From positions 1 through 43,759 of the forward strand of contig JAHEXT010000001.1 of NCBI GenBank assembly GCA_023251945.1: a stretch of DNA of 43,759 bases, read 5' to 3'. This document shows, one piece after another, positions 10,597 through 26,545 of the stretch; position 1 is the stretch's first letter, and each line of letters begins with the position of its first letter. The position numbers and the translations under genes are program-made. The notes beneath the pieces were generated by a model, which saw only the letters and a list, made by a program, of their open reading frames with translations, made no database searches and was not told where the DNA came from. This DNA is from Actinomycetes bacterium. GTDB taxonomy: Bacteria > Actinomycetota > Thermoleophilia > Gaiellales > Gaiellaceae.

Positions 10597-11553
10597 TCAG
10601 ATCAGCCGCGGATGCCGTCGGCGCCAGAGTGGCGAGCGCTGGAGCGCGTACGCCGTGGCGTTGTACGCGCCGATGCGGGCGCGGTACCAGGCAAGCACTA
10701 TCCCGGCGTGGGCCCTGGGCCGTGCCGAGCCGCGGTCGAGGAGCTCGTAGCCGAGCTCGGCGAGAAGGTCGCCCGCGATCGACTCGAACGCGCTCGCGTC
10801 CTCGGGGCTCATCTGAGTACGCCAGTCGCGGACGCCCTTCGTGGGCGCCTGCAGGAGCCTCTGATGGTGGGGCTTCGCGGACACGTCGATCGAACCCGAG
10901 TACTCGAGCATCGCGGGCTCGAAACGAAGGCTCGCGAACTCGCAGATCGAGCGCACGACTCGCTCCGGCTCGGCGACGAGGTTCTCGTACCGCACCTCGA
11001 AGTAGCGCGACGTGCCGACCCGCCGCCCGAGATCGCGTGCGTCCCCGACCTCGACGCGCCACTCGCATGCGAACCCCGCCGCATCTCCGGGATGCGCCCA
11101 CGTCTTCGTGACGACATGTTCGGGCATGTCGAGGAAGGCCAGCGCCGCGTCGCGTCCGTCCCGGATCAGATGGACGTACTGGGCGTCGTGGAAGAGACGG
11201 TCGAGCAGCCCGAGGTGCCGCATGTACATCGGCGTCTTGTCACCCCAGCGCGGCTTGCCCCGGCTCGAGGCATAGGCATCGAAAACGGCTGAGATCGCTT
11301 CGCCGATCTCCATGTCCGGACGCAGACGGGAGGCGAAGGCATCCGCAGAGAGTCCCCACGCAGCGAGTCTCGGAAAGCGTCGGAGGTCATCGAGGAAGGA
11401 GTCCGAATCGACCATTCCACGATGCCTACGTGCGAGCTGGGGGACGAAGAACGTCTCGTCGGGAATCGCGATCCCGGGCGAGCGGTCGAGGATGACGCGG
11501 AGCAGCGTCGTCCCCGAGCGGCTCACCCCGAGCACGATCAGCGGCGCGCTCAC
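10597..11553 (-). CDS. PAPS-dependent sulfotransferase family protein
   Basis: 5'-PSB loop VLGVSRSGTTLL and 3'-PB-like LIRDGRDAALAF. GTG start in a GTGA overlap with the upstream gene. Confidence 0.85.
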   Translation of the reverse strand: MSAPLIVLGVSRSGTTLLRVILDRSPGIAIPDETFFVPQLARRHRGMVDSDSFLDDLRRFPRLAAWGLSADAFASRLRPDMEIGEAISAVFDAYASSRGKPRWGDKTPMYMRHLGLLDRLFHDAQYVHLIRDGRDAALAFLDMPEHVVTKTWAHPGDAAGFACEWRVEVGDARDLGRRVGTSRYFEVRYENLVAEPERVVRSICEFASLRFEPAMLEYSGSIDVSAKPHHQRLLQAPTKGVRDWRTQMSPEDASAFESIAGDLLAELGYELLDRGSARPRAHAGIVLAWYRARIGAYNATAYALQRSPLWRRRHPRLI

Positions 11554-12495: not shown

Positions 12496-13167
12496 TCAGA
12501 TCGGGTCGAGCCCGCGCACGAGGACGAAGGGCTCCGCGTACTCGCACCCGCAGCTCGCCCCGTAGTACTCGGCCGCCGCCCGGATCGCCCGCTCGCTGCG
12601 CGGGTGTGGATACTCGCGGCGCTCGGTCTCGTAGCGCGCGAAGGCGGCGAGCTTCCTCTCGAGCGTCCCCGTGATGTCGACGAACCAGTTCGGGACGAAC
12701 CAGTTCACCGGCGCGGGCGTCCACTCCGTGCTCGAGGTCGGCGCGTACGTGAGGAGTCTGCGCACCCGCTGGCCGGGCGTGGGGCGCGTGGCCACCGCGA
12801 CCGAGTCGAAGAGCACCCGGTGGTCGCGGTTCACGTCCGGCTGGGCGGTGTAGACGACCTGCGGCGCGAGGTCCCGTACGTGTTCCTCGACGACCGTGTT
12901 CACGTCGACGTGCGCGAGCGTGTCCAGCCGCATGTCGGGGAGGTCGAGGTGGACATAGTCCGTCACGCCGAGCTCGGCTGCGGCACGCCGCGCTTCGTCC
13001 TCCTTTCGTGCCCGCGTCACGGTGTCGTCCGGGTACTGCGTCGAGCTCCCGTCCGTCACCACCACCACGCGAACGACGTCGCCACGGTCGGTGTGCGCGG
13101 CGATCGTGCCTCCCATGCCGAGCACCTCGTCGTCCGGGTGCGCGGCGATGACGAGCACGCGGGTCAT
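12496..13167 (-). CDS. PIG-L/LmbE-family deacetylase (second copy)
   Basis: Start refined to MTRVLVIAAHPDDEVLGMGGT (ATGA overlap with the upstream stop at 13164). PDVNRDHRV motif. The upstream 254 aa of the track ORF are an Arg-rich shadow. Confidence 0.85.
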   Translation of the reverse strand: MTRVLVIAAHPDDEVLGMGGTIAAHTDRGDVVRVVVVTDGSSTQYPDDTVTRARKEDEARRAAAELGVTDYVHLDLPDMRLDTLAHVDVNTVVEEHVRDLAPQVVYTAQPDVNRDHRVLFDSVAVATRPTPGQRVRRLLTYAPTSSTEWTPAPVNWFVPNWFVDITGTLERKLAAFARYETERREYPHPRSERAIRAAAEYYGASCGCEYAEPFVLVRGLDPI

Positions 13168-14846
13168 CCGAAACGCGCCCCCACGACGAGCGCGCCCGCA
13201 CCCGTATCGACCTCCTCGAGCAAGAGCCCACCCTCGCCGCAGGCCACGACCGGCCCCTCGGGCCGCTCGGCGACGATGGTCCCTGGGGGCGCGGCCGCGT
13301 CGAGCGCGACCGGCCGGGCACGCCAGATGACGACTTTCTCGTCTCCGAGGAACGTGAATGCGCCCGGGTACGGCCGCGTCTGCGCCCGCACCCAGTCGTG
13401 GAGGTACAGGGCGCGTGTCTCCCAGTCGATGATCCCGTCGGCGGGGGTCCGCCTCGGCCAGGAGCTGGCCCGGCGGGAATCCTGCGGGACGCGTGGTGCG
13501 CTCGTCGCGATGAGCTGAGGGACGACCTCTCGGATCAGCATGACGTGGGCCTCCGCGATGCGGTCGAAGAGGGTCGTCGCCGTGTCCTCGGGCGAGATGT
13601 CGATGATCGTTTGACCAACGATCGCCCCCGAGTCCGCGGTCGCGTCGACGATCTCGAAGAGCGTCACGCCCGTCCGCGCGAGCCCCGACAGGATCGCCCA
13701 CGGAATCGGAGCGCGTCCGCGGTGCCGAGGGAGGAGCGTAGGATGCATCCCGAAGACGCCCTCTTTCGCAAGCGCGATGAACGGATCGCGGACGAGCTGC
13801 GACCAGCCCACGACGAAGATCAGCTCCGGCTCGAGCACACGTATCGCCTCGAGCGTCGCGTCTGCGTTGACGTCCGTCGTCGTGACGAGCCGCGCGCCGT
13901 GCCGTTTCGCAACCGCGTCGAACGAGCACTGCCCCGAGCGGTTCGGGTCAATCGGCCCCGAGAGCGTGACGACACCCACGACGTCCGCGCCCACGTCCGC
14001 CGCCGCCTCCAGGCAGTCGCGGCCCACCGTGTCGAAGCTGACCCAGACCGTGCGCATCGCCGACGGGCGATGGTATCCGCTTAGCCGCGTGCGCCAACGC
14101 GCGGAGTTCGCGCGCAGGAAAGGCACGACGACGGCCAAGACGAGCTCGCTGTGGACGAACGCGCCAAGGTGTCCGAGGCCCGGGAGGACGACAGCCCGAC
14201 CGTCCGGAATCGCCGTAGCCGCTGCGGCGCAATGCTCAGCCTCGAGCTCCCCCGCGACGATCAGCGTCGGGGCCTCGATGCGCGGAAAGTGCGGCCATGG
14301 GCTCCAGCCAGCGAAGCATTCGAGCTCGCGCGCCACAACCTCTCGGTCCGTCTCGTCCGCGAGCTGCCGGATCAGCCACTCGGGTGCCGCTTCGCTGCCC
14401 AGGATCGCGCGAATCCCGCGCTCGCGCACGGCTCGTGCGGCCCTGCGCAACTCCTCCGGCTCTTCGTCGGGTGGGTCGACGCCCCCGGAGGCCACAAGCG
14501 CAGCAATGCGTTCTGGGTGTGCGGCGGCCATGGCGTATCCGACGTACGCACCATCGGAGTACCCCCAGAACGCGAAGCGCTCGATCCCGAGCTCGTCGAC
14601 GATCGCAGCAACATCGCCGGCGTAGTCGGCGACCGTGTAGCTGCTCCGGTCGGCAGGCGCGTCGCTCTGCCCATGACCGCGGTGGTCGAGGAGGACGACG
14701 ACGTGGAACTCGCTCAGCCCATCGACGTACCCCGCTTCGCGCCACATGCGCGAGTCGCCCGCGGCGCCCGTGTGCAACAGCAGCGGGAACCCGTCGCCCA
14801 CGACGTCGTAGGCAAGTCGCAAGCCTTGACGCTCGACGAACCTCAT
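13164..14846 (-). CDS. Fusion protein: N-terminal alpha/beta-hydrolase domain plus C-terminal formyltransferase-fold domain (Fmt/ArnA-N-like)
   Basis: One uninterrupted 560-aa frame. Hydrolase part: HRGHGQSD, GxSxG as WGYSDGA, GLGHLG. Transferase part: VVGWSQLV, GMHPTLLPRHRGRAPIPWA, ADSGAIVGQ, and a C-terminal Fmt-like beta-barrel segment (PYPGAFTF). Confidence 0.8.
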   Translation of the reverse strand: MRFVERQGLRLAYDVVGDGFPLLLHTGAAGDSRMWREAGYVDGLSEFHVVVLLDHRGHGQSDAPADRSSYTVADYAGDVAAIVDELGIERFAFWGYSDGAYVGYAMAAAHPERIAALVASGGVDPPDEEPEELRRAARAVRERGIRAILGSEAAPEWLIRQLADETDREVVARELECFAGWSPWPHFPRIEAPTLIVAGELEAEHCAAAATAIPDGRAVVLPGLGHLGAFVHSELVLAVVVPFLRANSARWRTRLSGYHRPSAMRTVWVSFDTVGRDCLEAAADVGADVVGVVTLSGPIDPNRSGQCSFDAVAKRHGARLVTTTDVNADATLEAIRVLEPELIFVVGWSQLVRDPFIALAKEGVFGMHPTLLPRHRGRAPIPWAILSGLARTGVTLFEIVDATADSGAIVGQTIIDISPEDTATTLFDRIAEAHVMLIREVVPQLIATSAPRVPQDSRRASSWPRRTPADGIIDWETRALYLHDWVRAQTRPYPGAFTFLGDEKVVIWRARPVALDAAAPPGTIVAERPEGPVVACGEGGLLLEEVDTGAGALVVGARFG

Positions 14847-14855: not shown

Positions 14856-15758
14856 CTAGTCGACCGCGGAGGGAAGCCTGCCGTTCCGAGAGCGCTGGAA
14901 GCGAATCCAGCTGTGCCGGCCGATCCAGACGAGCAACGCGACCAGTCCGGCGGCGAGCGCGGCGACGACGATCGTTCCCGCACCTGGCACGTCGAGGAGC
15001 TTGATCCCTGCGAGGCCGAGCACGCCCGCAAGCAGGAGACGAAGTGCCTGCTCGGGAATCGAGAGCGTGAGACGACCGCCGATCAGGACGCCAGGGATGG
15101 AGCCGAGGAGGAGCCAGCCGAGGATGCCGAAGTCGACGTTCCCGGCCGCCCAGTGCGCAGCTCCCGCGACGTACAGGAGCACGGCGGCGTGGAAGATGTC
15201 GGTGCCGACGACCTTGTGGGCGCGCAGCGGAAAGACGACGAGGAGCGTCAGCCCGAAGAAGACGCCGCTCCCGACCGAAGTCAAGCCGACGATGAACCCG
15301 CCGAACACTCCGATCAGAACCGCGGCGACGCGATCTCGGTTCGTGAGCTTCCAGTCAGGATCGCCGATCGCACTCGTCCGGACGAGGCTCTTCGCCACCA
15401 ACCCGGCGGCGCCGAAGAGCAAGGCGGCGCCCAGCACCTGGCCCAGCACTGACTTGACGTCGTCGCCGTACCGCTCCGTCAGCTGCACGTTGACCCAGAC
15501 GCCGAGCAGCGACATCGGTATGGAGCCGATGAGCATCCACCCGGCGAGCCTCGCGCGCACGTTGCCCATGCGTCGGTGCTGAACCGCCCCGACCGTCTTG
15601 AAGGCTGCGCCGTGCGCGATGTCCGTGCCGATCGCCGTCGCAGGCGGAATGCCGAACAAGAAGACCAGGATCGGCGTCATCAGCGACCCGCCCCCCATGC
15701 CCGTCATTCCCACCAGGATGCCGGTCAGGAGACCTGCAAGGACGAACTCCCAGCTCAA
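14856..15758 (-). CDS. TauE/SafE (TSUP) family sulfite/organosulfonate anion exporter
   Basis: 300 aa with about 8 TM segments. GMTGMGGGSLMTPILV signature. TTG start preceded by GGAGG. Confidence 0.85.
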   Translation of the reverse strand: MSWEFVLAGLLTGILVGMTGMGGGSLMTPILVFLFGIPPATAIGTDIAHGAAFKTVGAVQHRRMGNVRARLAGWMLIGSIPMSLLGVWVNVQLTERYGDDVKSVLGQVLGAALLFGAAGLVAKSLVRTSAIGDPDWKLTNRDRVAAVLIGVFGGFIVGLTSVGSGVFFGLTLLVVFPLRAHKVVGTDIFHAAVLLYVAGAAHWAAGNVDFGILGWLLLGSIPGVLIGGRLTLSIPEQALRLLLAGVLGLAGIKLLDVPGAGTIVVAALAAGLVALLVWIGRHSWIRFQRSRNGRLPSAVD

Positions 15759-15816
15759 GCCCGCGACCTCCGGTCACGGCCTTGAGCTAGATGGCGGTGA
15801 GCTTGCCGCCGGCGAG

Positions 15817-16953
15817 TCATTTGCGATATGCGTGAATTAGAACTTGGGCTACTTCGGGACGCGTGAACTCCACCGGCGGGACGTCGCCTTCCCCGAGCAT
15901 CTCGCGCACCTTCGTTCCCGAGAGGTGGACGCGGTCCTCGGGCCCGTGGGGGCACGACTTCGTGCTCGCCATCGAACCGCACACGTTGCACCAGAACGTG
16001 TGCTCGAAGAACATCGGCTCGATGTCCAGCTCGTGCGGCTCGAACTCGTCGAAGATGAGCTGCGCGTCGTAGGTGCCGTAGTAGTCGCCGACACCTGCGT
16101 GGTCGCGGCCGACGATGAAGTGCGAGCAGCCGTAGTTCTTGCGGCAGATCGCGTGCCAGATCGCCTCGCGCGGGCCCGCGTAGCGCATCGCCGCCGGGAA
16201 CGCCGACAAGAGCACGCGGTCCTCCGGGTAGTACCCGTCGAGCAGCGTCCGGTAGCAGTCGACCCGGACGCCGACCGGCACGTCGTCCGCCTTCGTCTCG
16301 CCGACGAGCGGATGGACGAGGAGGCCGTCGACCGTCTCGAGCGCCACCTTGGTCAGGTACTCGTGCGCGCGGTGGATCGGATTCCGCGTCTGGAATCCGA
16401 CGACGCGCTTCCAGCCGCGCTCGGCGAAGATCCGGCGGGTCTCGGCCGGATCGAACGCGAGCTCGGCGAACGGCGGCTGCGGACGCTCGAAGACCGTGAA
16501 ACGGCCCGCGAGGTAGAGCTGCTTCTGGGCGTAGAGGCGGGCGACGCCGGGATGCGCGTCGTCAGTGGTCCGGAAGCAGAGCTCTGCCTCGCGCTCCTTG
16601 TCGTACTCGAACACCTCCTCGACCTCGAGTACTGCAAAGGTGCGGCCCTCCTGGTCGGTGAGCGTGACCCGCTCGCCTTTCGGCGCCTCCTCCACCGCGA
16701 GACACACGGGGAGCGCCCAGGGCAAGCCGTTCTCGAGGTGCATCTCCTCGATGACCCGCTCGTAGTCGGCGTGACTCATGAAGCCCTCGAGGGGGGAGAG
16801 CGCGCCGGAGGCGATCAGGTCGAGGTCGGAGAGCTCCCGCAAGGTCAGCGGGAAGCGCTCGAGTGCGTCGAGATCCTCGGGCCGCTCGCCCGTCCGGTCG
16901 ACGAGCGTGCCGCCGTGGGGCCGGATCAGCCGGTCGGTCGCGGCAACCGTCAC
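15817..16953 (-). CDS. sat: Sulfate adenylyltransferase (ATP sulfurylase)
   Basis: GFQTRNPIHRAHE and VGRDHAGVG motifs. GTG start refined to 16953 (GTGA overlap with the cysC stop). Confidence 0.9.
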   Translation of the reverse strand: MTVAATDRLIRPHGGTLVDRTGERPEDLDALERFPLTLRELSDLDLIASGALSPLEGFMSHADYERVIEEMHLENGLPWALPVCLAVEEAPKGERVTLTDQEGRTFAVLEVEEVFEYDKEREAELCFRTTDDAHPGVARLYAQKQLYLAGRFTVFERPQPPFAELAFDPAETRRIFAERGWKRVVGFQTRNPIHRAHEYLTKVALETVDGLLVHPLVGETKADDVPVGVRVDCYRTLLDGYYPEDRVLLSAFPAAMRYAGPREAIWHAICRKNYGCSHFIVGRDHAGVGDYYGTYDAQLIFDEFEPHELDIEPMFFEHTFWCNVCGSMASTKSCPHGPEDRVHLSGTKVREMLGEGDVPPVEFTRPEVAQVLIHAYRK

Positions 16954-17549
16954 GCCGCCACCTTCGCGGGCACGAGGCCCATCTCCTCGAGCTTGGCGAT
17001 CACCGCCGCTGCGGACTCCTCCGGCTCCACGCCCTCCGTGTCCACGACGATCTCGGGCGCCGGCGGCTCCTCGTAGGGATCGTCCACACCCGTGAACCCC
17101 TTGATCTCGCCCGCGAACGCCTTCGCGTAGAGGCCGTTGACGTCTCGCCGGGCACATTCCTCGACCGACGTCCTGACGTACACCTCGACGAACGGGCCGT
17201 GCTCCTCGACCAGCGCGCGTGCGTTCGCTCGCGCCTGCTCGTACGGGGAGATCGCCGCGACGATGACGGCGCCGCCGTGGCGCGTCACCCGCGAAGCGAC
17301 CCAGCCGAGGCGCTCGATGTGCGCGTCGCGGTCCTCCTTCGAGAAGCCGAGGCCCCTCGAGAGATGTGTCCGCACGGTGTCGCCGTCGAGGTACTCGACG
17401 ACGAGCCCGCGCCGGTCCAGCTCCGGGCCGACGTGATGCGCGATTGTCGTCTTCCCCGAGCCGGAAAGCCCCGTGAACCAGAGGGTGAAGCCGCCGCCGC
17501 GATCGGACTCCGATTCCGGATGCTCATGCGCGTAGATGTGCTGACTCAT
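16950..17549 (-). CDS. cysC: Adenylylsulfate (APS) kinase
   Basis: P-loop WFTGLSGSGKTTIA, LDGDTVR, FTGVDDPYE. Start refined to MSQHIYAH (ATGA overlap with the cysH stop). Confidence 0.9.
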   Translation of the reverse strand: MSQHIYAHEHPESESDRGGGFTLWFTGLSGSGKTTIAHHVGPELDRRGLVVEYLDGDTVRTHLSRGLGFSKEDRDAHIERLGWVASRVTRHGGAVIVAAISPYEQARANARALVEEHGPFVEVYVRTSVEECARRDVNGLYAKAFAGEIKGFTGVDDPYEEPPAPEIVVDTEGVEPEESAAAVIAKLEEMGLVPAKVAA

Positions 17550-18259
17550 GCCGTCCTTTCCAATGTCTTGTCTTCGTGGATGCCGCACTCCAGCTTGTCC
17601 GAGCCTGCCCAGCGCCCGGCCCGCTCCTCCTCGTCGGGGCTCGTGGGACGGGTGCACGGAATGCAGCCGATTGAACGGTAGCCAGCCTCGTGTAGCGGGT
17701 TGTAGGGGATCCCGTTGATCTCGATGTACGACCAAACGCGCTTCTCGTTCCAGTCGGCGAGCGGGTGGATCTTGAAGACCTGGTAGCGCTCCGACCACTG
17801 CAATTTTGGCGTTTTGGCGCGGCTCGGCGACTGGTCGCGGCGGATCCCCGAGATCCATGCGTCGTACGGTGCGAGCGCGCTCACGAGGGGCTCGACCTTG
17901 CGGATGTGGCAGCAGCGGTCGGGATCGCGCTCCCACAGATTCGGGCCCTCGGCGCGGTGCTGCTCGGCGATCGTCGGGATCTCCGGCCGGATCAGCTTCA
18001 GCGCGTAGCGCTCGACGAGGCGGTCGCGCGTCTCGTAGGACTCGCGGAAGAAGAGGTGCGTATCCAGCTCGACGGTGTCCATGCGCAGCCCGAGCTCCGC
18101 GACCATGTGAACGAGCACCGACGACTGCTTCTGCCAGGAGCAGGTGAGGCAGAGCCTCGGCCAGAAGAACCGGTGCGCCCAGGAGATGACCTCCTCGGCG
18201 CTCATGGCCTCGAAGTCGAGGTCAGGTAGCCGGGGAAGGCTCGACGCTCTGACGGCCAA
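17546..18259 (-). CDS. cysH: Assimilatory APS/PAPS reductase, Fe-S (APS-reductase) type
   Basis: RCCHIRKVEPL, SIGCIPCT and C-terminal ECGIH. The Cys-Cys...CxxC set is the [4Fe-4S] signature of APS-specific CysH. An alternative start lies at 18205. Confidence 0.85.
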   Translation of the reverse strand: MAVRASSLPRLPDLDFEAMSAEEVISWAHRFFWPRLCLTCSWQKQSSVLVHMVAELGLRMDTVELDTHLFFRESYETRDRLVERYALKLIRPEIPTIAEQHRAEGPNLWERDPDRCCHIRKVEPLVSALAPYDAWISGIRRDQSPSRAKTPKLQWSERYQVFKIHPLADWNEKRVWSYIEINGIPYNPLHEAGYRSIGCIPCTRPTSPDEEERAGRWAGSDKLECGIHEDKTLERTA

Positions 18260-19025
18260 GGAGCACCTCCTTCAACGTGTCGGCACGCAACCCGAGGCGA
18301 AGGGTCTCGAGCGCGATGACCTCGTCGGGCGGGATGTTCCCGAGGTTGACCTCCGGGCCGAAGTGCTTCACGAACCACGCCTGCGAATCCTTGGTCGGAG
18401 CCTCCCAGATCAGGTCGTGGAAGCTGATCGAGTGCTCGATCTCGTCCACGAGGCCCGTGCGGAGCTCCCCGGTCGGCCGGTAGATGCCCGCGGTGCCGCC
18501 CTCGCGGCCTTCGGCGATCACTTTCCAGGCCCCCGCAGCGAGCTCCTCGGTGATCCACTCGACCCACTGGTAGGGGGCGAAGACAACCTCCGCGTCCTTC
18601 GAGCCGACCTCGGAGAGGACGGCGAAGTCGCGGGCGAAATCGGCGATCAGCTCGAGCTTGCGCTCGCGCGGGATCTCGATCGTGCCGTCCGAGATCTCGA
18701 CGTGGGAGAAGCGGAAGTGCTCGAGCCAGCCCTTGAACTCGTCCACCTTGTCCTGGGCGTACACGGCCTCGAAAAGCGTCCCGCCGCACACGACCGGAGT
18801 CGCGAACGAGCGGTACAGCGCGATCTTCTTCTCCAGGTTGTTCGTAACGTAGCTCGTGCCCCAGCCGAGCTTGACGATGTCCACGTACTCGCCCGCGGTG
18901 TCGAAGAGGCCCTCGATCTCGCGCAGGTTGAGCCCCTTGTCGATGACGTGGGTGAGCCCGCGCGAGCGCGGCTTCCCCTCCCGGACGGGCACGTCGAGGA
19001 AGGAGTTCTGGTCAAAGGCGTGCAT
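18222..19025 (-). CDS. comA: (2R)-phospho-3-sulfolactate synthase
   Basis: Matches the ComA family from end to end as I recall it: RGLTHVIDKGL, DIVKLGWGTS, GGTLFE, VEISDG, VIAEGRE, EAP.K.Q, NLGNIPPDEVIALETLRLGLRADT. Start refined to MHAFDQ. Confidence 0.85.
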   Translation of the reverse strand: MHAFDQNSFLDVPVREGKPRSRGLTHVIDKGLNLREIEGLFDTAGEYVDIVKLGWGTSYVTNNLEKKIALYRSFATPVVCGGTLFEAVYAQDKVDEFKGWLEHFRFSHVEISDGTIEIPRERKLELIADFARDFAVLSEVGSKDAEVVFAPYQWVEWITEELAAGAWKVIAEGREGGTAGIYRPTGELRTGLVDEIEHSISFHDLIWEAPTKDSQAWFVKHFGPEVNLGNIPPDEVIALETLRLGLRADTLKEVLLGRQSVEPSPAT

Positions 19026-19599
19026 AGATGTCCTCCAGCTTCTTTCGGGCCCGCTCCTGAACATCGTGGTAGAGCGAGCTCCCGTGGGCGTCGATGCCGA
19101 CCGTGAGCGGGCCGAAGTCCTTCACGCGGAACTTCCAGAGGCACTCGGGCATGAGCTCCTCCCAGGCGACCTCCTCGATCTCCTCGATCTGGGTCGTCTC
19201 CAGCGCGGCCGCTCCGCCGACGATGGCGAAGTAGACCATCCCGAGACGCCGCATCGGCTCGATCGCCTCGTCCGGGAAGCCGCCCTTGCCGCAGATCGCC
19301 CGGACGCCGTACTTCGAGCCGAGCCCCTCCGTGAAGCGCACCATGCGGGCGCTCGTCGTCGTCCCGATGCAGATCTTCTCGTAGCGGCCCGGCCCGAGCT
19401 TGCGGACCCCGGGCGCGGTGTGGAGGAGGAAGGCGCCGCTGAGATCCATCGGCGGCTCAATCCCCTGGTCGAAGATCCGGATCTGCGTCCGGTCGCGGAT
19501 CCCGATGATGTGTCCCTGAACGACGACCTCGTCGCCCGCGCGCAGCTTCACGATCTCCGCAGGGTCCGTGATCGGGAACGTAACCTCGTGGGTCGCCAT
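19012..19599 (-). CDS. Fe-S type hydro-lyase beta subunit (class I fumarate hydratase/tartrate dehydratase beta, Fumerase_C)
   Basis: 195 aa starting MATHEVTFPI. Segments LHTAPG, IGTTTSARM, ICGKGG. Its ATG overlaps the alpha-subunit stop (TGATG). Confidence 0.85.
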   Translation of the reverse strand: MATHEVTFPITDPAEIVKLRAGDEVVVQGHIIGIRDRTQIRIFDQGIEPPMDLSGAFLLHTAPGVRKLGPGRYEKICIGTTTSARMVRFTEGLGSKYGVRAICGKGGFPDEAIEPMRRLGMVYFAIVGGAAALETTQIEEIEEVAWEELMPECLWKFRVKDFGPLTVGIDAHGSSLYHDVQERARKKLEDIYARL

Positions 19600-20495
19600 C
19601 ACGCGTCTCTCTCGTACTCGACGGTGCCGTCTGCCGCGACGTGAGCCGAGGCGCGGCGCGCAGCCCAGCACTGGTAGTTGACCGCGACCGGGTTCAGGGT
19701 CATGTGCGTGTCGGCGTGCTCGACGTGGACGGAGAGAACCGTGACGTCGCCGCCGAGCCCCATGGGCCCGACGCCGGTCTCGTTCAGGAGCTCGTAGAGC
19801 TCGTCCTCGAGCTGCGCCACCAGCGGATCGGGATTGCGCGTGGCGACCGGCCGTGCGATCGCCTCCTTCGCGAGGTGCATCGCGTAGTCGGCGCTCCCGC
19901 CAATGCCCACTCCGACGATCCCGGGCGGACACGGCTTCCCGCCCGCGCCGACGATCGACTCGAGGACGAACTTCTTGATCCCCGTGACGCCGTCGGCGGG
20001 AACGCACATCTTCAGGAAGCTCATGTTCTCGGAGCCCGAGCCTTTCGGCACGCACTTCACGTCGAGGCCGTCCCAGTCGGGCACGAAGTCCCAGTGGACG
20101 ATCGGGACGCGGAAGCCGACGTTCGGGCCCGTGTTCTCCCGGGTCAGCGTGTGGACCGTGTTCGAGCGCAGCGGGTGCTCGACGGTCGCGCGCTCGGTAC
20201 CCGCCTTCAGCGCTTCGTAGATACGCGCCGGGTGGAGCGGGAAGCCCTCCCCGACGCGGCAGTAGTAGACGGGGATCCCCGTGTCCTGGCAGACGAGGTT
20301 CCGCTCATCCTCCGCCACGTTCACGTTGCGGAGGATGGTCTGGAGAACACGCTGGCCGGTCACCGAGGTCTCCTTCTCTGCTGCGCCGGCGAGAGCGTCC
20401 CTCAAGTCCTGCGGGATGTCCTTCAGTGCCCAGACATAGAGATACGCGGCGGCGTCCTCGACAGAGACGGAGAGATCGGTCGCTATCGTGATCAC
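19599..20495 (-). CDS. Fe-S type hydro-lyase alpha subunit (class I fumarate hydratase/tartrate dehydratase alpha)
   Basis: The three cluster cysteines sit in family context: CQDTGIPVYY, KCVPKGSGSENMS, NYQCW. GTG start refined to 20495 (GTGA overlap with the upstream stop). Confidence 0.85.
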   Translation of the reverse strand: MITIATDLSVSVEDAAAYLYVWALKDIPQDLRDALAGAAEKETSVTGQRVLQTILRNVNVAEDERNLVCQDTGIPVYYCRVGEGFPLHPARIYEALKAGTERATVEHPLRSNTVHTLTRENTGPNVGFRVPIVHWDFVPDWDGLDVKCVPKGSGSENMSFLKMCVPADGVTGIKKFVLESIVGAGGKPCPPGIVGVGIGGSADYAMHLAKEAIARPVATRNPDPLVAQLEDELYELLNETGVGPMGLGGDVTVLSVHVEHADTHMTLNPVAVNYQCWAARRASAHVAADGTVEYERDA

Positions 20496-21742
20496 GTCGT
20501 CGCCCTCTCCGCCGCCGCCTTCCCTGCACGACGGCCGAACACGGTGCACTCCAACAGCGAATTGCCCATCATCCGGTTCCTACCGTGCGTCCCGCCCGCG
20601 ATCTCGCCGCAGGCGAAGACACCCTCGAGCGTCGTCTCCGCACGCTCGTCGATCACGAGCCCGCCGTTCTGGTAGTGGAGGACGGGGTACGTGAAGATCG
20701 GCTCGGCGAGCGGATCGATGCCGGCCCCGCGGTAGCGTCGCAGCATGTAGGGGAGCGAGATCTCGGCGTCCTCAGGGGAGATCCGGACCGTGTCGAGCCG
20801 GACCGCGGGGCGGCCGTCGGGCGTGAGGACGCCCTTCCCCTTGTCCACCTCGTCGAAGATCGCCTGCGAGACGGCGTCGCGCGGCCCGAGCGAGTCCGTG
20901 AACTCCTCGCCGTCGGCGTTGAGGAGCACGGCGCCGTAGGCGCGAGTCGTTTCGGGGATCGAGTAGCCCTGCATCGTGTCCGGCCACGCGCCTCCGTTCG
21001 GGTGGTACTGGAGCGCGTCGAGGTCCCGGGCCTCCGCGCCCGCCTCCAGTGCGATGCGGGTGACCTCGCCCGTCGCGTTCGGATGGTTCGTCGAGAGCTC
21101 GCCGCGTGTCTCCGCCTCCGCGTAGCAGCGCCCGCCGGCCGCCAGTACGATCGCCCGCGCGAAGACCTCGACCGCCTCCTCGTCCTTGCGACGGAACGTC
21201 GCGGTCCAGCCGGACTCCGCCGGGCGGAGCTCGACGAGAGCATGATGCGGGAGCTCCGTTCCCGGACCCGCCTCGTACGCATCGCGGAGCGCCTTCGTGA
21301 TGGCGTGCCCGGTGCGGTCGCCGACCTGGAGCAGTCGCTTCCGGCTCGCTCCGCCGCAGCGCGCGAGCCGATAGCCCCCATTCGACCGCGTGAACTCGAC
21401 GCCGAGCTCTTCCAGCCAGTGAATCGCGGACGGCGCCTCGCTCGTGAGCACCTCCGCGAGGCGCGGGTTGGCCGTGTCGTGCGAGCTCCGCATGACGTCC
21501 TCGGCATGGATCTCGGGCGAGTCGTCGTCGCCGAACGCCGCCTGGATGCCTCCCTGCGCCTTCGCGGAGTTGCACGCCTGCAGGGTCGTCTTCGTCGCCA
21601 GCCCGACCCGGGCTCCGGCCCGCTCGGCGGAGACGGCGGCAGCCAGGCCGGACGCGCCGCTGCCGATGACGAGCACGTCGAAGGAGACGCCCGTGCGCAC
21701 GGGCCGCATGCTAGCGGAATTCCTTATCTCTGTCATCATCAT
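20492..21742 (-). CDS. Short FAD-dependent oxidoreductase of the FrdA/SdhA/NadB flavoprotein family (FAD_binding_2), lacking the C-terminal helical domain
   Basis: DVLVIGSGASGLAAA (GxGxxG), AKAQGGIQA, YHPNG, GVFACGEIAGGTHGRNRMMGNSLLECTVFG. The start may instead be Met-12 (21709), which has an AAGGA upstream. Confidence 0.8.
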   Translation of the reverse strand: MMMTEIRNSASMRPVRTGVSFDVLVIGSGASGLAAAVSAERAGARVGLATKTTLQACNSAKAQGGIQAAFGDDDSPEIHAEDVMRSSHDTANPRLAEVLTSEAPSAIHWLEELGVEFTRSNGGYRLARCGGASRKRLLQVGDRTGHAITKALRDAYEAGPGTELPHHALVELRPAESGWTATFRRKDEEAVEVFARAIVLAAGGRCYAEAETRGELSTNHPNATGEVTRIALEAGAEARDLDALQYHPNGGAWPDTMQGYSIPETTRAYGAVLLNADGEEFTDSLGPRDAVSQAIFDEVDKGKGVLTPDGRPAVRLDTVRISPEDAEISLPYMLRRYRGAGIDPLAEPIFTYPVLHYQNGGLVIDERAETTLEGVFACGEIAGGTHGRNRMMGNSLLECTVFGRRAGKAAAERATT

Positions 21743-21796: not shown

Positions 21797-22186
21797 GTGG
21801 CCACTCTCGCCGAGATCGTCAAGCCGAACTTCATCACCGTCGCCCCGGAGGACACTCTCGGCGAAGTTGCGGAGAAGATGAACCAGCAGAACGTCGGCGC
21901 CGTGATCGTGAGGGACTACGGCCGGCTCATCGGGATCCTCACCGAGCGCGACATGCTCCGGGCCATGGCCTCCCGCGTGCACACGAGCGACGCCCGAGTG
22001 CGCCAGTGGATGACGGCCGACCCGATCACCGCGTCACCGGAGATGCCGCTCGACGACGCTGCGCAGGTGATGCTGGACCACGGTTTCCGACACCTTCCCG
22101 TGGTCGACGGCTCGACCGTGCTCGGCGTCGTCAGCCTCCGCCGCGTCCTCGGCGGCCGCCGCCAGCCGGCCCCCGAGGCGGCGTAA
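21797..22186 (+). CDS. Stand-alone CBS-pair (Bateman module) protein
   Basis: 129 aa from the GTG at 21797. Two CBS repeats (ITVAPEDTLGEVAEKMNQQNVGAVIV...GILTERD and ITASPEMPLDDAAQVMLDHGFRHLPVV...GVVSLRR). Confidence 0.8.
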   Translation: MATLAEIVKPNFITVAPEDTLGEVAEKMNQQNVGAVIVRDYGRLIGILTERDMLRAMASRVHTSDARVRQWMTADPITASPEMPLDDAAQVMLDHGFRHLPVVDGSTVLGVVSLRRVLGGRRQPAPEAA

Positions 22187-23163: not shown

Positions 23164-23565
23164 TCAGCTGCAGGCCGACACGACGCCCTTGACGAGGGCC
23201 GCGGCCGCCGTGCGGGGCGGCACGCCGAGCTTCCGAAGCTGGGACCTGAGCTTGCGCTCGCCTCTGATCTCGCCCGTCGCCCGCTCCTCCGCCGTGCGGG
23301 GAGAGATGCGCGTCACGAGGCACGACGTCCGGTACTTCGTCCCGCTGATCCAGCCGGCCGCGTACAGGTAGCGGAGCACCGGCCTCTTGTACGGAGCGCG
23401 AGCGAAGGCCGCCTTCGCTCCACCGACCGGGACCTTCTGCGCCCGTGCTCCGGAGGTCACGAGCTTGATGGCCGCGGCGTTGGACGTTGGAAGAGCCGCG
23501 AGCTGACCCCCGAGGCTCAACGCGACGAGAGCGACCGCAGCGGTGACGGTGATGTACTCGACCAC
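23164..23565 (-). CDS. Small hypothetical protein with an N-terminal hydrophobic helix
   Basis: 133 aa. N-terminus (M)VEYITVTAAVALVALSLGG; basic C-terminal half. No family recognised. Confidence 0.4.
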   Translation of the reverse strand: MVEYITVTAAVALVALSLGGQLAALPTSNAAAIKLVTSGARAQKVPVGGAKAAFARAPYKRPVLRYLYAAGWISGTKYRTSCLVTRISPRTAEERATGEIRGERKLRSQLRKLGVPPRTAAAALVKGVVSACS

Positions 23566-23607: not shown

Positions 23608-24567
23608 TCACCAGATCGAGCGGAGCAGCTCCTCGGCATCCTCGGCTGTGACCGGCCGCGGATTTGCACGCGCGCCCGGGCGTACCTCCACCTCGGCTGC
23701 GAGGGACGGAAGGTCTTCCTCCGAGACCCCGAAATCGCGGAGACGCTCGAAGCCGCCGAGCCGGGCGAGCTCCACCACCCGCAGCGCTGGATCGTCCGTG
23801 TCGAGCGCCTCGCCGAGCCGCGCTATCGCCTCGGGAACGACGGGCTCGTTGAAGCGGAGCGCCGGCGGGAGGGTCAGGGCGTTCATGGCCCCGTGCGGAA
23901 GGCCGTACCGGCCGCCGAGGACCTGCGCCAGCGCGTGCGCGAGGTACAGGCCGCGGTCGGCGAGCGCCTTGCCTCCGTGCATGGCTCCCTCGAGTAGCCG
24001 AGTTCGCGCCTCCAAGTCGTGCCCGTCCGCGACCACCGCCGGCAGATTGCCTCCGATCAACCGCGCTCCGACGACCGCGTCCTCGCATTCGCCCGCGTAG
24101 AGGGCTTCGGCGCAGTGGGCGAGCGCATTGAGCGCTGTGCCCGCGCTCTCGCCCGGCGGAAGATCCAGCGTCAGGCGCGGCTCGTACACGATCGCGACCG
24201 TCCGGGCACCGGAGCCGCCGCTCTTCACCCGGCGCTCCTCGTCGCGGACGCCGAAGTAGGGCGTCCATTCGGCTCCCGCATACGTGGTCGGCACCACGAC
24301 GAGCGGGAGGCCCGTCGCCGCGGACACCGCCTTGGCCGTGTCGATCGCGCTGCCTCCCCCGAGGCCGACCAGTGAGTCGGCCTCCCGCGATGCAGCTACG
24401 GCCTCCGACACGGTCTCGAGAGGCGAGTGCCGTCTCACCCCTGAGAAGCGCGCGGCGACGGGGAGCTCGAGGTCACGGAATCGCTCGCTCGCCACGAGCA
24501 GCGGGCGCGCGCTCCCGAGCTCGGACAGGAGTCCTCGGAGCTCGCCGAGGCCCCAGCGGACGATCAC
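23608..24567 (-). CDS. Iron-containing alcohol dehydrogenase-family oxidoreductase (maleylacetate reductase-like)
   Basis: GLGGGSAIDTAK; His-rich metal site ALNALAHCAEAL and HALAQVLGGRYGLPHGAMNAL. GTG start at 24567 in a GTGA overlap with the lysR stop. Confidence 0.8.
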   Translation of the reverse strand: MIVRWGLGELRGLLSELGSARPLLVASERFRDLELPVAARFSGVRRHSPLETVSEAVAASREADSLVGLGGGSAIDTAKAVSAATGLPLVVVPTTYAGAEWTPYFGVRDEERRVKSGGSGARTVAIVYEPRLTLDLPPGESAGTALNALAHCAEALYAGECEDAVVGARLIGGNLPAVVADGHDLEARTRLLEGAMHGGKALADRGLYLAHALAQVLGGRYGLPHGAMNALTLPPALRFNEPVVPEAIARLGEALDTDDPALRVVELARLGGFERLRDFGVSEEDLPSLAAEVEVRPGARANPRPVTAEDAEELLRSIW

Positions 24568-25460
24568 GGCGTCAGCCGCTCGCGGGCGAACCCGACGAAT
24601 GCGTCCGCCACGCGCGTGCGCGCCCTTCCCGCGGCAGACGCGAGCGAGATCTCCCGAGTCGCCTCCAGCCCCTGGACACGGGCCTCGGCCAGCGTCCCGG
24701 CTTCCAGATCGGACTCGACCGCCGTCCGGGAGATGAACGTCACGCCGTACCCGGCCTCGACCGCGCGCCGGACGGACTCCTGGAGACCGAGCTCGAGGCG
24801 GACGTCGAGATCGCGCAGCCGCACTCCGCGGCGCCGGAGCGCGTCCTCGACGATCTGGCGCACGCCCGCTCCCTCCTGCATCAGAATCAGAGATTCCCCC
24901 CGCAGCTCGTCGAGGGTCACCGTGCGACCCGAGAACGGGTGGCCCGACGGGCACGCGAGAATGACCTCGTCGGAGAAGAACGGCTCGAAGCGGACACCTC
25001 TGTGCCGCCGAGACGCGCCGACGATCCCGAGCTCGAGCTCCCGCGCTGCGACCCGCTCGATGACGGTGTGCGTGTCCGACACCGTGAGGAAGACGCGAAC
25101 GCCCGCGTTCTCGCGCTGGAACTCGCCGAGGAGGACCGGGACGACGATCGCCGCTGGGCCCGTCGACGCGCCGAGCACGAGATCGCCGGCGAGCTCGCCC
25201 TCCCCGCTCAGCGCGACGTCCGAGACGATCTGATCCTCCAGGGCCAGGAGCCGCTGCGCGCCCCGGTAGAGACGCCAGCCGGACTCGGTGGGCTCGACTC
25301 GGCGGCCGGAGCGATCAAGAAGCTGCGTCCCGAGCCGCTTCTCGAGCGCGCGTACCTGGAGTGACACCGCCGGCTGCGTTACGCCGAGGCGCTCGGCCGC
25401 CTGCGAGAAGCTCCGGCGCTCGACAACGGCGCAGAAGGCGGCAAGTTGCCGCGTATCCAT
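24564..25460 (-). CDS. LysR-family transcriptional regulator
   Basis: N-terminal wHTH FSQAAERLGVTQPAVSLQVRALE followed by a LysR substrate-binding domain. Confidence 0.9.
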   Translation of the reverse strand: MDTRQLAAFCAVVERRSFSQAAERLGVTQPAVSLQVRALEKRLGTQLLDRSGRRVEPTESGWRLYRGAQRLLALEDQIVSDVALSGEGELAGDLVLGASTGPAAIVVPVLLGEFQRENAGVRVFLTVSDTHTVIERVAARELELGIVGASRRHRGVRFEPFFSDEVILACPSGHPFSGRTVTLDELRGESLILMQEGAGVRQIVEDALRRRGVRLRDLDVRLELGLQESVRRAVEAGYGVTFISRTAVESDLEAGTLAEARVQGLEATREISLASAAGRARTRVADAFVGFARERLTP

Positions 25461-25500: not shown

Positions 25501-26514
25501 GTGCGCGTCTGGATCGACGTCTCGAACTCTCCGCAGGTCCCGTTCTTCCGGCCTCTGATCGCCCTGCTCGAGGCGCGCGGGCACGACGTCCAAGTCACGA
25601 CGCGAGACTACGCGCAGACCCTGGAACTGCTCCGCCTCCATGGGATCCGCCACGAGGCCGTCGGCCCACGCCACGGCGGACCCGGAGCGTTGAGGAAGGG
25701 GCGCGCGATGGCCGGACGGCTTCGGGCGCTCCGCCGCTTTGCCCGCAGCCGCGACTTCGACATCGCCCTCTCACACGCCTCCCACGAGCTGCCGCTCGTG
25801 GCGCGCTCTCTCGGCGTGCCGTCGGCATACGCCTTCGACTACGAGTTCGCCCGCGCGCAGCACGGCTTTGGGTGCCGGGCCGCACGGCGCGTCGTCGTCC
25901 CCGAGGCGATCCCGCTCGAGCGGCTCAGCCGGCTCGGAGCGCCGGCGCGAAAGGTGCGCCGGTACCCGGGGCTCAAGGAGGAGTACTACCTCGCGGGCTT
26001 CGAGCCGGATCCGGGAGCTCTCGACGCGCTCGGCCTCGACCGCGAGCGCGTACTTGTAGTCGTGCGCACCCCACCCGAGGTGTCGCTCTACCACCGGCAT
26101 GGCAACCCGCTCTTCTCCGACGTGCTCCGAAACCTTGGGTCGAACCCCGCCGTCCAGGCCGTCGTCCTTCCGCGAACGACCGAGCAACGAGCGGCGATCC
26201 GCGCCCTGCGGCTCCCCTCCCTCGTCGTTCCCGAGCAGGCCGTGGACGCACAGAGTCTCGTCTCCCTTGCCGACCTCGTCGTCTCGGCAGGCGGGACGAT
26301 GAACCGCGAGGCCGTCGCACTCGGGGTGCCCGTCTACACCGTCTTCGCAGAGCGGCTCGGCGCGGTGGACGAGGCCCTGATCCAGGAAGGCAGGCTTCGC
26401 CCGCTTCGGGCCGCGAGCGAGCTCGAGCTGGAGAAGCGGCCGACGACCGCACAGGCCGGCGGCCGCGATCCCGGACAGATGCTCGACCTCTTGCTCTCCG
26501 CGCTCGAGGGGTAG
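25501..26514 (+). CDS. DUF354-family protein (GT-B-like, surface-glycan associated)
   Basis: MRVWIDVSNSPQVPFFRPLIALLEARGHDV, TRDYAQTLELL and SAGGTMNREAVALGVP match the DUF354 pattern as I recall it. Confidence 0.7.
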   Translation: MRVWIDVSNSPQVPFFRPLIALLEARGHDVQVTTRDYAQTLELLRLHGIRHEAVGPRHGGPGALRKGRAMAGRLRALRRFARSRDFDIALSHASHELPLVARSLGVPSAYAFDYEFARAQHGFGCRAARRVVVPEAIPLERLSRLGAPARKVRRYPGLKEEYYLAGFEPDPGALDALGLDRERVLVVVRTPPEVSLYHRHGNPLFSDVLRNLGSNPAVQAVVLPRTTEQRAAIRALRLPSLVVPEQAVDAQSLVSLADLVVSAGGTMNREAVALGVPVYTVFAERLGAVDEALIQEGRLRPLRAASELELEKRPTTAQAGGRDPGQMLDLLLSALEG

Positions 26515-26545
26515 CGCGAGTGTCTCGAGGGCGCTTAGCTCGGCT

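Follow-up and report, generated by a model that had tools for sequence, protein, structure and literature searches.

We describe an operon of eight co-directional genes on the minus strand of a 43,759-nucleotide (nt) stretch of DNA (about 69% GC; hereafter the window, meaning the whole stretch) from a bacterium of the Gaiellaceae (GenBank contig JAHEXT010000001.1, positions 1 to 43,759). The operon combines genes for sulfate activation and reduction with a gene of the ComA family and with genes for a two-subunit hydro-lyase and a short flavoprotein. On balance, we favour the reading that these genes form the centre of a more extensive system, conserved in the Gaiellales, which would make a C3 sulfonic acid, most likely placed on a cell-surface glycan. 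It is noted that a first-pass annotation of this DNA, made from the letters alone, had proposed that the operon makes a C3 sulfonate by a route not yet described and that its TauE permease exports the product. The idea of a novel route and the linkage of the hydro-lyase and the flavoprotein to ComA are retained here, while the export by TauE and the limits of the operon are revised.

Assignment of the eight genes

The family assignment was made with Pfam and NCBIfam profiles on the called open reading frames (ORFs) of the window, and the gene junctions were read directly in the sequence. All eight genes of the first-pass annotation are present in the order that it gave, every start/stop overlap that it named is found in the sequence, and the profile assignment that it had suggested, now run, places eight of the eight proteins at the family level. 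From the upstream to the downstream end, the genes are:

20492–21742, minus strand: short flavoprotein of 416 amino acids (aa), matching FAD_binding_2 (PF00890) only, 223 bits
19599–20495, minus strand: FumA, class I hydro-lyase alpha subunit, Fumerase (PF05681), 305 bits
19012–19599, minus strand: FumB, class I hydro-lyase beta subunit, Fumerase_C (PF05683), 92 bits
18222–19025, minus strand: ComA (PF02679), 287.1 bits
17546–18259, minus strand: CysH, PAPS_reduct (PF01507); NF002537, 245 bits against a cutoff of 154
16950–17549, minus strand: CysC, adenosine 5'-phosphosulfate (APS) kinase, APS_kinase (PF01583); TIGR00455, 199 bits against a cutoff of 139
15817–16953, minus strand: Sat, homo-oligomeric ATP sulfurylase, PUA_2 and ATP-sulfurylase; NF003166, 530 bits against a cutoff of 387
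14856–15758, minus strand: TauE/SafE (TSUP) permease (PF01925), 151 bits against a cutoff of 32.6

Recurrence of the module in distant lineages

The flavoprotein was searched against 1.84 billion cluster representatives, and the genomic context was looked up for eight short homologues (396–415 aa, 35–41% identity) and for one 545-aa form. Six of the eight short homologues adjoin ComA (L085, L089, L090, L093, L094 and L095, where L-numbers denote the loci fetched for comparison), and one of these six, L085, also has the two hydro-lyase genes. The first-pass annotation had asked whether comA, the split hydro-lyase and the short flavoprotein occur together across genomes, and this recurrent adjacency at 35–41% identity bears out the hydro-lyase and the flavoprotein as genuine partners of ComA. 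The gene orders, with FAD for the short flavoprotein, are:

L085: PglF, Wzy_C, FAD, Fumerase, Fumerase_C, ComA, His_Phos_1, PIG-L, ATP-grasp
L089: ATP-grasp, FAD, Lyase_1, ComA, DUF7033, inside a Wza/Wzx/Wzy locus
L090: deacetylase-like, FAD, Lyase_1, ComA, ATP-grasp-like, Wzy_C, sulfotransferase
L093: Lyase_1, ATP-grasp, FAD, ComA, GT2, DegT
L094: FAD, Lyase_1, ComA, with an AMP-binding ligase nearby
L095: AMP-binding ligase, FAD and ComA, with no lyase in view
L088: CysH, ATP-grasp, FAD, Lyase_1 and sulfotransferase, with no ComA within 17 kb

The GC content of L085, L088, L089 and L090 is 32–54%, from which we take them to be distant lineages. The place of the hydro-lyase pair (FumAB) is occupied by a gene of the Lyase_1 family in four of the six ComA-linked loci (L089, L090, L093 and L094), and FumAB together with a His_Phos_1 gene is seen in one (L085). 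The Lyase_1 proteins of L088–L090 are about 40% identical to one another and 30–38% identical to XcbC (Xaut_5053) of the Xanthobacter plasmid pXAUT01 (E values from 1e-74 to 1e-89); they also match the XcbC counterparts on the coenzyme M (CoM) plasmids of Nocardioides JS614 and Mycolicibacterium chubuense, they score better against XcbC than against true argininosuccinate lyases (ArgH), and XcbD is unmatched. The Lyase_1 proteins of L093 and L094 are XcbC-like by Pfam family. Experiments have shown that XcbC removes the phosphate of phosphosulfolactate by elimination and so forms sulfoacrylic acid (PMC9457059). Thus, either a known maker of sulfoacrylate or FumAB stands at the same place between the flavoprotein and ComA, and this is the strongest evidence that FumAB acts on the product of ComA. 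Based on this exchange, the genes point to sulfoacrylate as the common intermediate and to 3-sulfopropanoate as the likely product.

Two of the homologues looked up lack this association. The archaeal protein P0154 belongs to another subfamily and has no link to ComA, and so does the 545-aa gammaproteobacterial form (P0278; L091, 9366–12891), which has no ComA. This latter form, from metagenome-assembled genomes (MAGs) of marine Gammaproteobacteria, carries an N-terminal extension and is flanked by ferredoxin-like (Fer4) and Complex1_51K NADH-binding genes, the three making up a separate reductase.

The hydro-lyase and the short flavoprotein

FumA passes the fumarate hydratase equivalog NF004885 (308 bits against a cutoff of 276), is about 50% identical to the alpha subunit of the Methanocaldococcus jannaschii fumarase (7xky_A) and keeps all three cluster cysteines, in the motifs CQDTG, KPCPP and QCWA. 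FumB fails both of the relevant profiles, with 146.6 against 269 for the fumarase beta equivalog and 139 against 264 for the beta subunit of tartrate dehydratase (TtdB), and its catalytic motifs TTSARM (TTSxRM) and GKGG are intact. In common with the distant L085 copy, FumB has RD(R/A)T(Q/L) for RDxAH and LHTAP for YHxGP, and it shares with that copy indels and substitutions that the archaeal fumarases do not have; among the Gaiellales its median identity is 91%. These substitutions fit a distinct ComA-linked orthologous group and are not proof of a new substrate. The linkage of the FumAB genes to ComA argues for a sulfonate analogue as the substrate, and we propose FumAB to be a candidate (R)-sulfolactate dehydratase.

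The short flavoprotein lies below the cutoffs of all NadB, Sdh and Frd equivalogs, with nadB as its best NCBIfam match. Together with its ComA-linked relatives it keeps the equivalents of His232, Glu245, Arg287, His355 and Arg390 of Escherichia coli FrdA. In place of His44, the covalent-FAD residue of FrdA, it has Asn; the chain stops at the position of FrdA residue 417 and so has no C-terminal (helical) domain, and no gene for an Fe-S subunit adjoins that of the flavoprotein. An assignment as NadB was rejected: the score against TIGR00551 is 254.8 with a cutoff of 452.75, and at the position aligned with Glu121 of E. coli NadB, the residue that binds the amino group of the substrate, the window protein has Cys and its relatives have Gly, Ala, Cys or Val. 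With the catalytic set of FrdA kept and with His44, the NadB glutamate and the C-terminal domain gone, the protein looks like a soluble enoate (fumarate-type) reductase and not like an aspartate oxidase. We propose that it may be a sulfoacrylate reductase with non-covalent FAD.

A more conventional explanation would be that ComA is a passenger in an ordinary assimilatory sulfate-reduction operon, which has the housekeeping fumarase and a shortened NadB/Frd gene as its neighbours. The passing score of FumA, the intact catalytic motifs and the nadB match of the flavoprotein are what such an explanation expects. It has to contend, however, with a flavoprotein far below the NadB/Sdh/Frd cutoffs that has neither the Glu121 equivalent nor the C-terminal domain, with a FumB far below its equivalog cutoffs whose signature is common to the ComA-linked L085 copy, with an overlap of FumB and ComA that is conserved among the Gaiellales loci, with the recurrence of the flavoprotein-lyase-ComA triad at 35–41% identity even where a non-homologous lyase stands for FumAB, and with an operon that contains no sulfite reductase. 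We therefore regard it as improbable.

ComA and the supply of sulfite

The match of ComA to its Pfam profile far exceeds the curated cutoff of 25.2 bits and covers positions 3–243 of 243. Its nearest solved structures, aligned end to end, are YitD of Bacillus subtilis (1u83, E 5e-63) and then ComA of M. jannaschii (1qwg, E 1e-44); it is 41% identical to XcbB of pXAUT01, and against the archaeal equivalog TIGR03849 it scores 246.5, below the cutoff of 280. Homologues with more than 80% identity number in the hundreds, and the named ones come from soil MAGs of the Gaiellaceae or the Thermoleophilia. From the family assignment it is well supported that the window ComA would be a phosphosulfolactate synthase of the YitD type, converting phosphoenolpyruvate (PEP) and sulfite to (2R)-phospho-3-sulfolactate.

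The family assignments and the translational coupling also bear out the earlier view that Sat, CysC and CysH form a dedicated sulfate activation and reduction set feeding a genuine protein of the ComA family. The window CysH is a thioredoxin-type reductase of APS or of 3'-phosphoadenosine 5'-phosphosulfate (PAPS) with the CC/CxxC Fe-S signature of the APS-type reductases. CysH with this signature is found beside Sat in the window and beside CysDN in L061 (10764–11435), and CysH that has no Fe-S cysteines and is about 43% identical is found in L001 (10764–11435, with CysD and CysN) and in L073 (10776–11390). The two types of CysH at the same position of the operon imply that the pairing of the CysH type with Sat or with CysDN is not strict. 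As CysD plus CysN take the position of Sat in L001, L002 and L061, it is the sulfate-activating function that appears to be selected there. CysH and Sat are both gone in L053, L054 and L060, and in L053 and L054 CysC stands directly ahead of a sulfotransferase, which implies that CysC also serves PAPS-dependent sulfation. Considering this adjacency and the Fe-S type of the window CysH, the feeding of CysH, which had been assigned to CysC, is probably not its sole role.

This front end is not in itself new, and its precedent had been missed. In B. subtilis, yitCD encode ComB and ComA, and yitBA-yisZ encode paralogues of CysH, Sat and CysC (PMC517825); both groups were assigned to the synthesis of phosphosulfolactate for sulfolactate, which makes up 5% of the spore dry weight (PMC517825). 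A dedicated supply from sulfate to sulfite for ComA is thus a known design, and both systems have dedicated Sat, CysC and CysH paralogues clustered with ComA, the window ComA being nearest to YitD among the solved structures. It is the downstream additions that differ. The B. subtilis system has ComB (YitC) and stops at sulfolactate, whereas no ComB was found in the window, which adds an Fe-S hydro-lyase, a short flavoprotein, a LysR regulator, an iron-type alcohol dehydrogenase (Fe-ADH) and a TSUP permease, and which has them in a glycan locus instead of a sporulation regulon.

It might also be supposed that the operon is catabolic and runs in reverse, from 3-sulfopropanoate through sulfoacrylate, sulfolactate and phosphosulfolactate to PEP and sulfite, with TauE exporting the sulfite. 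In chemical terms each of the proposed reactions could run either way, TauE bears the name of a sulfite exporter, and LysR regulators are typical of catabolic operons. On the other hand, Sat, CysC and the thioredoxin-type CysH are assimilatory and produce sulfite, and their translation is coupled to that of ComA; a kinase that could return sulfolactate to its phosphorylated form is missing, and the distant modules lie in biosynthetic glycan loci with ligases. It is very improbable that the operon works in this direction.

Conservation in the Gaiellales and extent of the operon

When one genome was scanned for each GTDB species, 540 relatives of ComA were found, of which the best 80 loci, all of the Gaiellales type, were examined. 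The locus counts were obtained with tblastn of the window proteins, and the denominators of 71, 65 or 61 are the loci with enough flanking sequence. In 59 of 71 species loci ComA is immediately preceded by all three genes of the flavoprotein, FumA and FumB, whereas three loci have partial matches and nine have none, so that the gene order on which the first-pass proposal had been staked is kept in the greater part of the relatives. Downstream of ComA, CysH is present in 61/65 loci, CysC in 64/65, Sat in 43/65 and TauE in 63/65.

At its downstream end the operon reaches further than had been described. The eight-gene core stands, but tauE is not the end of the operon, and the packed run consists of 12 genes from 21742 to 10597, the last four of which are:

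13164–14846, minus strand: alpha/beta-hydrolase-formyltransferase fusion, ArnA/Fmt-like, Abhydrolase_1 and Formyl_trans_N/C
12496–13167, minus strand: PIG-L de-N-acetylase copy 1 (PF02585), 95 bits
11550–12461, minus strand: FlgD_ig-domain protein (PF13860)
10597–11553, minus strand: PAPS-dependent sulfotransferase, Sulfotransfer_3/1

The junctions along this run are tight. The start of FumA lies over the stop of the flavoprotein in GTGA at 20495–20492, and FumA and FumB are joined in TGATG/GTGATG at 19602–19597. ComA starts with ATG at 19025, with GGAGG ahead of it and a 14-nt overlap with the FumB stop; CysH starts with TTG at 18259, with AAGGAGG ahead and a 38-nt overlap with ComA, ATG at 18205 being an alternative start. 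CysH and CysC are joined in ATGA at 17549–17546 and CysC and Sat in GTGA at 16953–16950. From Sat to TauE there is a 58-nt spacer with GGAGG ahead of the TauE start, TTG at 15758. The TauE stop is followed after a gap of 9 nt by the fusion gene, which overlaps PIG-L copy 1 in ATGA, and the FlgD_ig gene overlaps the sulfotransferase gene, the final one of the run, in GTGA. For the flavoprotein the start candidates are ATG at 21742, 21739 and 21736, and ATG at 21709 or GTG at 21700 matches the homologue alignments better. No terminator-like site was found between 21742 and 10597, the promoter/terminator scan being nowhere above the shuffled expectation, and the Rfam and tRNA scans of the window gave no match.

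The FlgD_ig protein (58/61 loci) is probably a surface protein, and the sulfotransferase (32/61 loci) is the likely consumer of PAPS, the product of CysC. The hydrolase-formyltransferase fusion is a single ORF in the window; it is present in 30/61 loci, always directly after TauE.

Upstream of the flavoprotein are two further genes that belong to the conserved neighbourhood:

23608–24567, minus strand: short Fe-ADH, ADH_Fe_C and Fe-ADH
24564–25460, minus strand: LysR-type regulator, overlapping the Fe-ADH start, HTH_1 and LysR_substrate

LysR is present in 59/61 loci and Fe-ADH in 43/61. The best solved relatives of Fe-ADH (3jzd, 3iv7, 3w5s and 3hl0) are of the maleylacetate-reductase type, and for this reason an assignment as glycerol-1-phosphate dehydrogenase was rejected. 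Fe-ADH lies directly upstream of the flavoprotein in L001, and in nine of the nine loci that do not have the flavoprotein and FumAB it is the nearest same-strand gene before ComA, being directly upstream in L084; the loci without Fe-ADH all keep the FumAB genes. Fe-ADH would be a lineage-specific accessory enzyme. A protein with two CBS domains (21797–22186) is divergent from the operon, its gene being 55 nt from that of the flavoprotein, and occurs in 44/61 loci.

The glycan neighbourhood

The operon lies among genes of a glycan locus, as follows:

1–1446, plus strand: Wzx-type flippase, cut by the window edge, Polysacc_synt and Polysacc_synt_3
2006–3172, minus strand: DUF7033/polysaccharide-deacetylase-family protein, weak PF23019 match
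3205–4410, minus strand: ATP-grasp carboxylate-amine ligase, CPSase_L_D2 and ATPgrasp_Ter
7071–7706, minus strand: PIG-L de-N-acetylase copy 2 (PF02585)
7865–9307, plus strand: Wzy_C-domain protein (PF04932), O-antigen polymerase/ligase type
25501–26514, plus strand: DUF354 glycosyltransferase, by Pfam
26546–28453, minus strand: PglF-like 4,6-dehydratase, by Pfam
28450–29535, minus strand: DegT aminotransferase, by Pfam
30279–32069: NAGPA

The three genes from 25501 to 29535 are amino-sugar genes. The distant modules keep the same kind of company. A carboxylate-activating ligase accompanies the module in seven of seven distant loci, being an ATP-grasp protein in five (L085, L088, L089, L090 and L093) and an AMP-binding protein in two, and de-N-acetylases (PIG-L, DUF7033/CE4-like or a weak Polysacc_deac_1 match) accompany it in three. 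L085, L089 and L090 have Wzy_C genes on the flanks of the ComA module, and PglF-like or DegT genes lie beside it in L085, L088, L090 and L093. Since de-N-acetylases and ATP-grasp ligases accompany the modules in glycan loci of the Wzx/Wzy type, as they do in the window, the sulfo-acid is probably ligated to an amino sugar.

The window genes also have direct relatives in these loci. The ATP-grasp protein is 28–30% identical to those encoded on the flanks of the flavoprotein-lyase-ComA module of L089 and L090. In L089 the gene directly after ComA encodes a homologue of the DUF7033 protein, with 28% identity over 332 aa. PIG-L copy 2 is an orthologue of the PIG-L of L085 (12125–12778, 55% identity), whose gene comes after ComA and His_Phos_1, and is 81–90% identical across the Gaiellales loci inspected. 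Close relatives of the DUF7033 protein are annotated in the sources as PgdA/CDA1-family proteins or polysaccharide deacetylases. A sequence search against solved structures gave nothing for the DUF7033 protein and only remote matches of the biotin-carboxylase type for the ATP-grasp protein. PIG-L copy 2 is directly followed by ATP-grasp in L004, L050, L055 and L059, and in L063 ATP-grasp stands after TauE, inside the operon. We propose that the ATP-grasp protein encoded at 3205–4410 may attach the sulfo-acid.

Between PIG-L copy 2 and ATP-grasp the window has a block of copper-protein genes (4476–6660), namely a cupredoxin-like ORF of 297 aa (4476–5369, read by eye), a multicopper oxidase (5297–6253) and a small cupredoxin (6250–6660). 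This block looks like an insertion because its two flanking genes adjoin each other in L004, L050, L055 and L059.

Transport and the possibility of a free sulfonate

The first-pass annotation took TauE for the exporter of the product. The gene contexts give this no support: the TauE gene goes along with the genes for sulfate activation, no TauE is seen in the distant ComA modules, and in L078 a sulfate importer stands in its place. The TauE slot of L078 contains DUF4395, two sulfate-binding proteins (Sbp), CysT, CysW and CysA, that is, a sulfate ABC importer, which suggests that the slot serves the supply of sulfate. Judged from this context, it is more likely that TauE would bring in sulfate or sulfite than that it exports the product. 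A DUF4395 membrane protein recurs before TauE or the sulfate ABC transporter in L078 (13145–13627), L001 (14155–14634) and L053 (12311–12736, minus strand) and is not found in the window. In L078 (6031–7278) and L061 (4798–7011) the genes of Fe-ADH and the flavoprotein are separated by an inserted MFS or MMPL transporter gene on the strand of the operon; these are possible exporters of a product or of a glycolipid.

The main rival to a glycan-bound product is that the C3 sulfonate (sulfolactate, sulfoacrylate or 3-sulfopropanoate) stays free and soluble, either as an anionic solute of the cytoplasm or as a product exported by TauE, with the glycan genes as mere neighbours. The sulfolactate of B. 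subtilis spores, accumulated to 5% of their dry weight by the same Sat/CysC/CysH/ComA logic, is a precedent for it, and members of the TauE/SafE family are annotated as sulfite or sulfoacetate exporters in the Pfam name. Moreover, TauE stays next to ComA even in loci without CysH and Sat (L053, L060 and L070), and the MFS or MMPL transporters of L078 and L061 would suit an exported product. However, a free product does not account for the carboxylate-activating ligases in all seven distant loci, nor for their counterpart inside the operon in L063, and an export by TauE is at variance with its absence from the distant modules and with the sulfate importer of L078. We consider a free sulfonate to be possible but rather unlikely.

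Proposed pathway

Returning to a glycan-bound sulfonate, we put the steps together as follows. The families and the context of the genes support the first steps, in which Sat, or CysDN in some of the relatives, would convert sulfate to APS, and CysC would form PAPS for the sulfotransferase of the operon and, in relatives with a PAPS-type CysH, for the formation of sulfite. CysH would reduce APS or PAPS to sulfite, and ComA would add the sulfite to PEP, giving (2R)-phosphosulfolactate. The phosphosulfolactate would then be dephosphorylated, perhaps by an enzyme such as the His_Phos_1 phosphatase whose gene adjoins ComA in L085, and FumAB would dehydrate the resulting (R)-sulfolactate to sulfoacrylate. 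In other lineages the XcbC-like phosphate-eliminating lyase in the place of FumAB may make sulfoacrylate directly. The short flavoprotein would reduce sulfoacrylate to 3-sulfopropanoate. (2R)-Sulfolactate corresponds sterically to L-malate, the difference being one of Cahn-Ingold-Prelog (CIP) priorities alone, from which we infer that sulfolactate, sulfoacrylate and 3-sulfopropanoate form a sulfonate copy of the series malate, fumarate and succinate. The ATP-grasp protein (3205–4410) may activate the carboxylate and join it to an amino sugar freed by the PIG-L or CE4-type de-N-acetylases, in a glycan of the Wzx/Wzy type, to which the sulfotransferase may add O-sulfate from the PAPS made by CysC. 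LysR would regulate the system, and TauE would more probably import sulfate or sulfite.

In its general form, this would be a widespread and so far unrecognised pathway for decorating bacterial surface glycans with C-S bonded sulfonates, in which sulfoacrylate, made from the phosphosulfolactate of ComA either by an XcbC-like lyase or by a phosphatase plus FumAB, is reduced by the flavoprotein to 3-sulfopropanoate, which is then ligated by ATP-grasp to a de-N-acetylated amino sugar. We put this full sequence forward tentatively, as a possibility short of the probable.

Several points weigh against the assignments made here. Every step beyond the family assignment is drawn from sequence, and the catalytic residues of FumAB are the same as those of true fumarases, so that sequence alone is no proof of a sulfonate substrate. 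No phosphosulfolactate phosphatase was found in the window or in any Gaiellales locus, and tblastn gave no homologue there of the L085 His_Phos_1 protein, itself not homologous to ComB; an electron donor for the flavoprotein is likewise not evident in the window context. Nine of the 71 Gaiellales species loci (L068, L072–L074, L076, L077 and L082–L084) have neither the flavoprotein nor FumAB and nevertheless keep LysR, Fe-ADH, ComA, CysH, CysC and, further on, TauE. The ATP-grasp and DUF7033 genes of the window are about 15 kb from ComA, with the copper-protein genes between, and a glycan neighbourhood that is kept within one family may be plain synteny. Finally, the cross-phylum sample is small, consisting of nine look-ups chosen from cluster representatives.

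Comparison with known systems

The CoM pathways are the nearest described relatives of the proposed route. The XcbABCDE system of Xanthobacter autotrophicus (PMC9457059) has the same start, its ComA homologue XcbB being the one compared above, and sulfoacrylate is the likely intermediate in both. The two differ in that no homologues of XcbA, XcbD and XcbE accompany the window operon and that XcbC-like genes were found by tblastn only in the distant L088–L090. Xcb uses a lyase of the aspartase/fumarase superfamily and the addition of cysteine onto sulfoacrylate, whereas the system in the window would use a phosphatase and an Fe-S dehydratase, then reduction by the flavoprotein, for a product that is not CoM. 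With the archaeal PEP-dependent CoM pathway (ComA-ComB-ComC-ComDE), the window shares the first reaction and the ComA fold family; ComB, ComC and ComDE were not found in it with Pfam and NCBIfam on the called ORFs.

This agrees with the first-pass annotation, which had seen no ComB, ComC, ComDE or Xcb homologues in the window: none was found with Pfam on the called ORFs and on one more ORF read by eye, the tblastn searches of it with XcbA, XcbC, XcbD and XcbE were empty, and the Lyase_1 family is not among the Pfam matches of the window's called ORFs. The known CoM pathways were rejected for the window because these homologues are missing. A cryptic third route, in which ComA and further enzymes would lead to 2-mercaptoethanesulfonate, could appeal to ComA being the first enzyme in both known PEP-dependent CoM routes (PMC9457059) and to the XcbC-like lyases of the distant modules being closest to a CoM enzyme. 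Yet XcbA, XcbD and XcbE homologues were found by tblastn neither in the window nor in any fetched locus, the ComB, ComC and ComDE families are absent from the window ORFs, the module has no pyridoxal-phosphate (PLP) enzyme or decarboxylase, no genes of alkene or methane metabolism are in view, and the context is that of glycan assembly. Such a route is therefore extremely improbable.

With the pair of class I fumarase and soluble Frd/TfrA-type reductase, the window shares the enzyme families and the catalytic residues. The differences are that the window flavoprotein is without the C-terminal domain and the His for covalent FAD, that no gene for an Fe-S partner accompanies it, that the beta subunit forms a separate subfamily, and that FumAB and the flavoprotein are tied genomically to ComA and not to genes of the tricarboxylic acid (TCA) cycle. 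The system would thus resemble the yit system in its front end, the first two Xcb steps in its middle part and the fumarase/fumarate-reductase pair in its chemistry. It is a member of none of the three, since ComB, XcbA, XcbD and XcbE are missing and since FumB and the flavoprotein fail the family cutoffs.

For the ligation there is a parallel in the PIG-L logic of MshB and BshB in mycothiol and bacillithiol synthesis and in the ATP-grasp amidoligases of capsule biosynthesis, where de-N-acetylation is followed by ATP-dependent re-acylation. The window also pairs deacetylases of the PIG-L and CE4 types with ATP-grasp, near a module that would form the acid. In contrast to mycothiol and bacillithiol, the ligase is no homologue of MshC or BshC, the acyl group would be a sulfonic acid and the setting is a Wzx/Wzy polymer and not a small thiol.

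In the full-text literature searched, which omits most subscription journals, we came upon no account of this gene set, and so the statement of the first-pass annotation to this effect stands. In the same literature nothing links ComA or phosphosulfolactate to fumarate hydratase or to the Gaiellales, and no link to a polysaccharide or to ATP-grasp was among the ranked matches.

Other genes in the window

A 133-aa ORF with no family match (23164–23565) is found in 34/61 of the Gaiellales loci. The region 32142–41724 holds menaquinone genes of the futalosine route, comprising an MqnA-like VitK2_biosynth gene, two radical SAM genes of the CofH/MqnC type, UbiD/UbiX-like genes, UbiE and a polyprenyl synthase, and within the same region a Rieske, split cytochrome b and cytochrome c set is flanked by the menaquinone genes. 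At the window edge (41733–43739) lies a STAND-type NTPase (NB-ARC/NACHT-like) with TPR repeats.

Implications

To our knowledge, phosphosulfolactate derived from ComA feeds only CoM and the sulfolactate of Bacillus spores, and the system described here points to a third fate. If the proposed pathway is true, it contains two new activities: an enzyme of the Fe-S fumarase class would dehydrate sulfolactate, and one of the fumarate-reductase class would reduce sulfoacrylate. Moreover, FumAB plus a phosphatase on the one hand and the XcbC-like lyase on the other would be a clear case of non-homologous replacement.

The Gaiellales are among the most abundant uncultured actinobacteria of soil, and the core module is also present in low-GC lineages, in every case next to genes for surface polysaccharides. 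If the product is bound to a glycan, sulfonated envelope polymers would be a new sink in the organosulfur cycle of soil. The envelope polymer of the Gaiellales would then be both sulfonated and sulfated, anionic and free of phosphate, which would make it a new kind of wall polymer.

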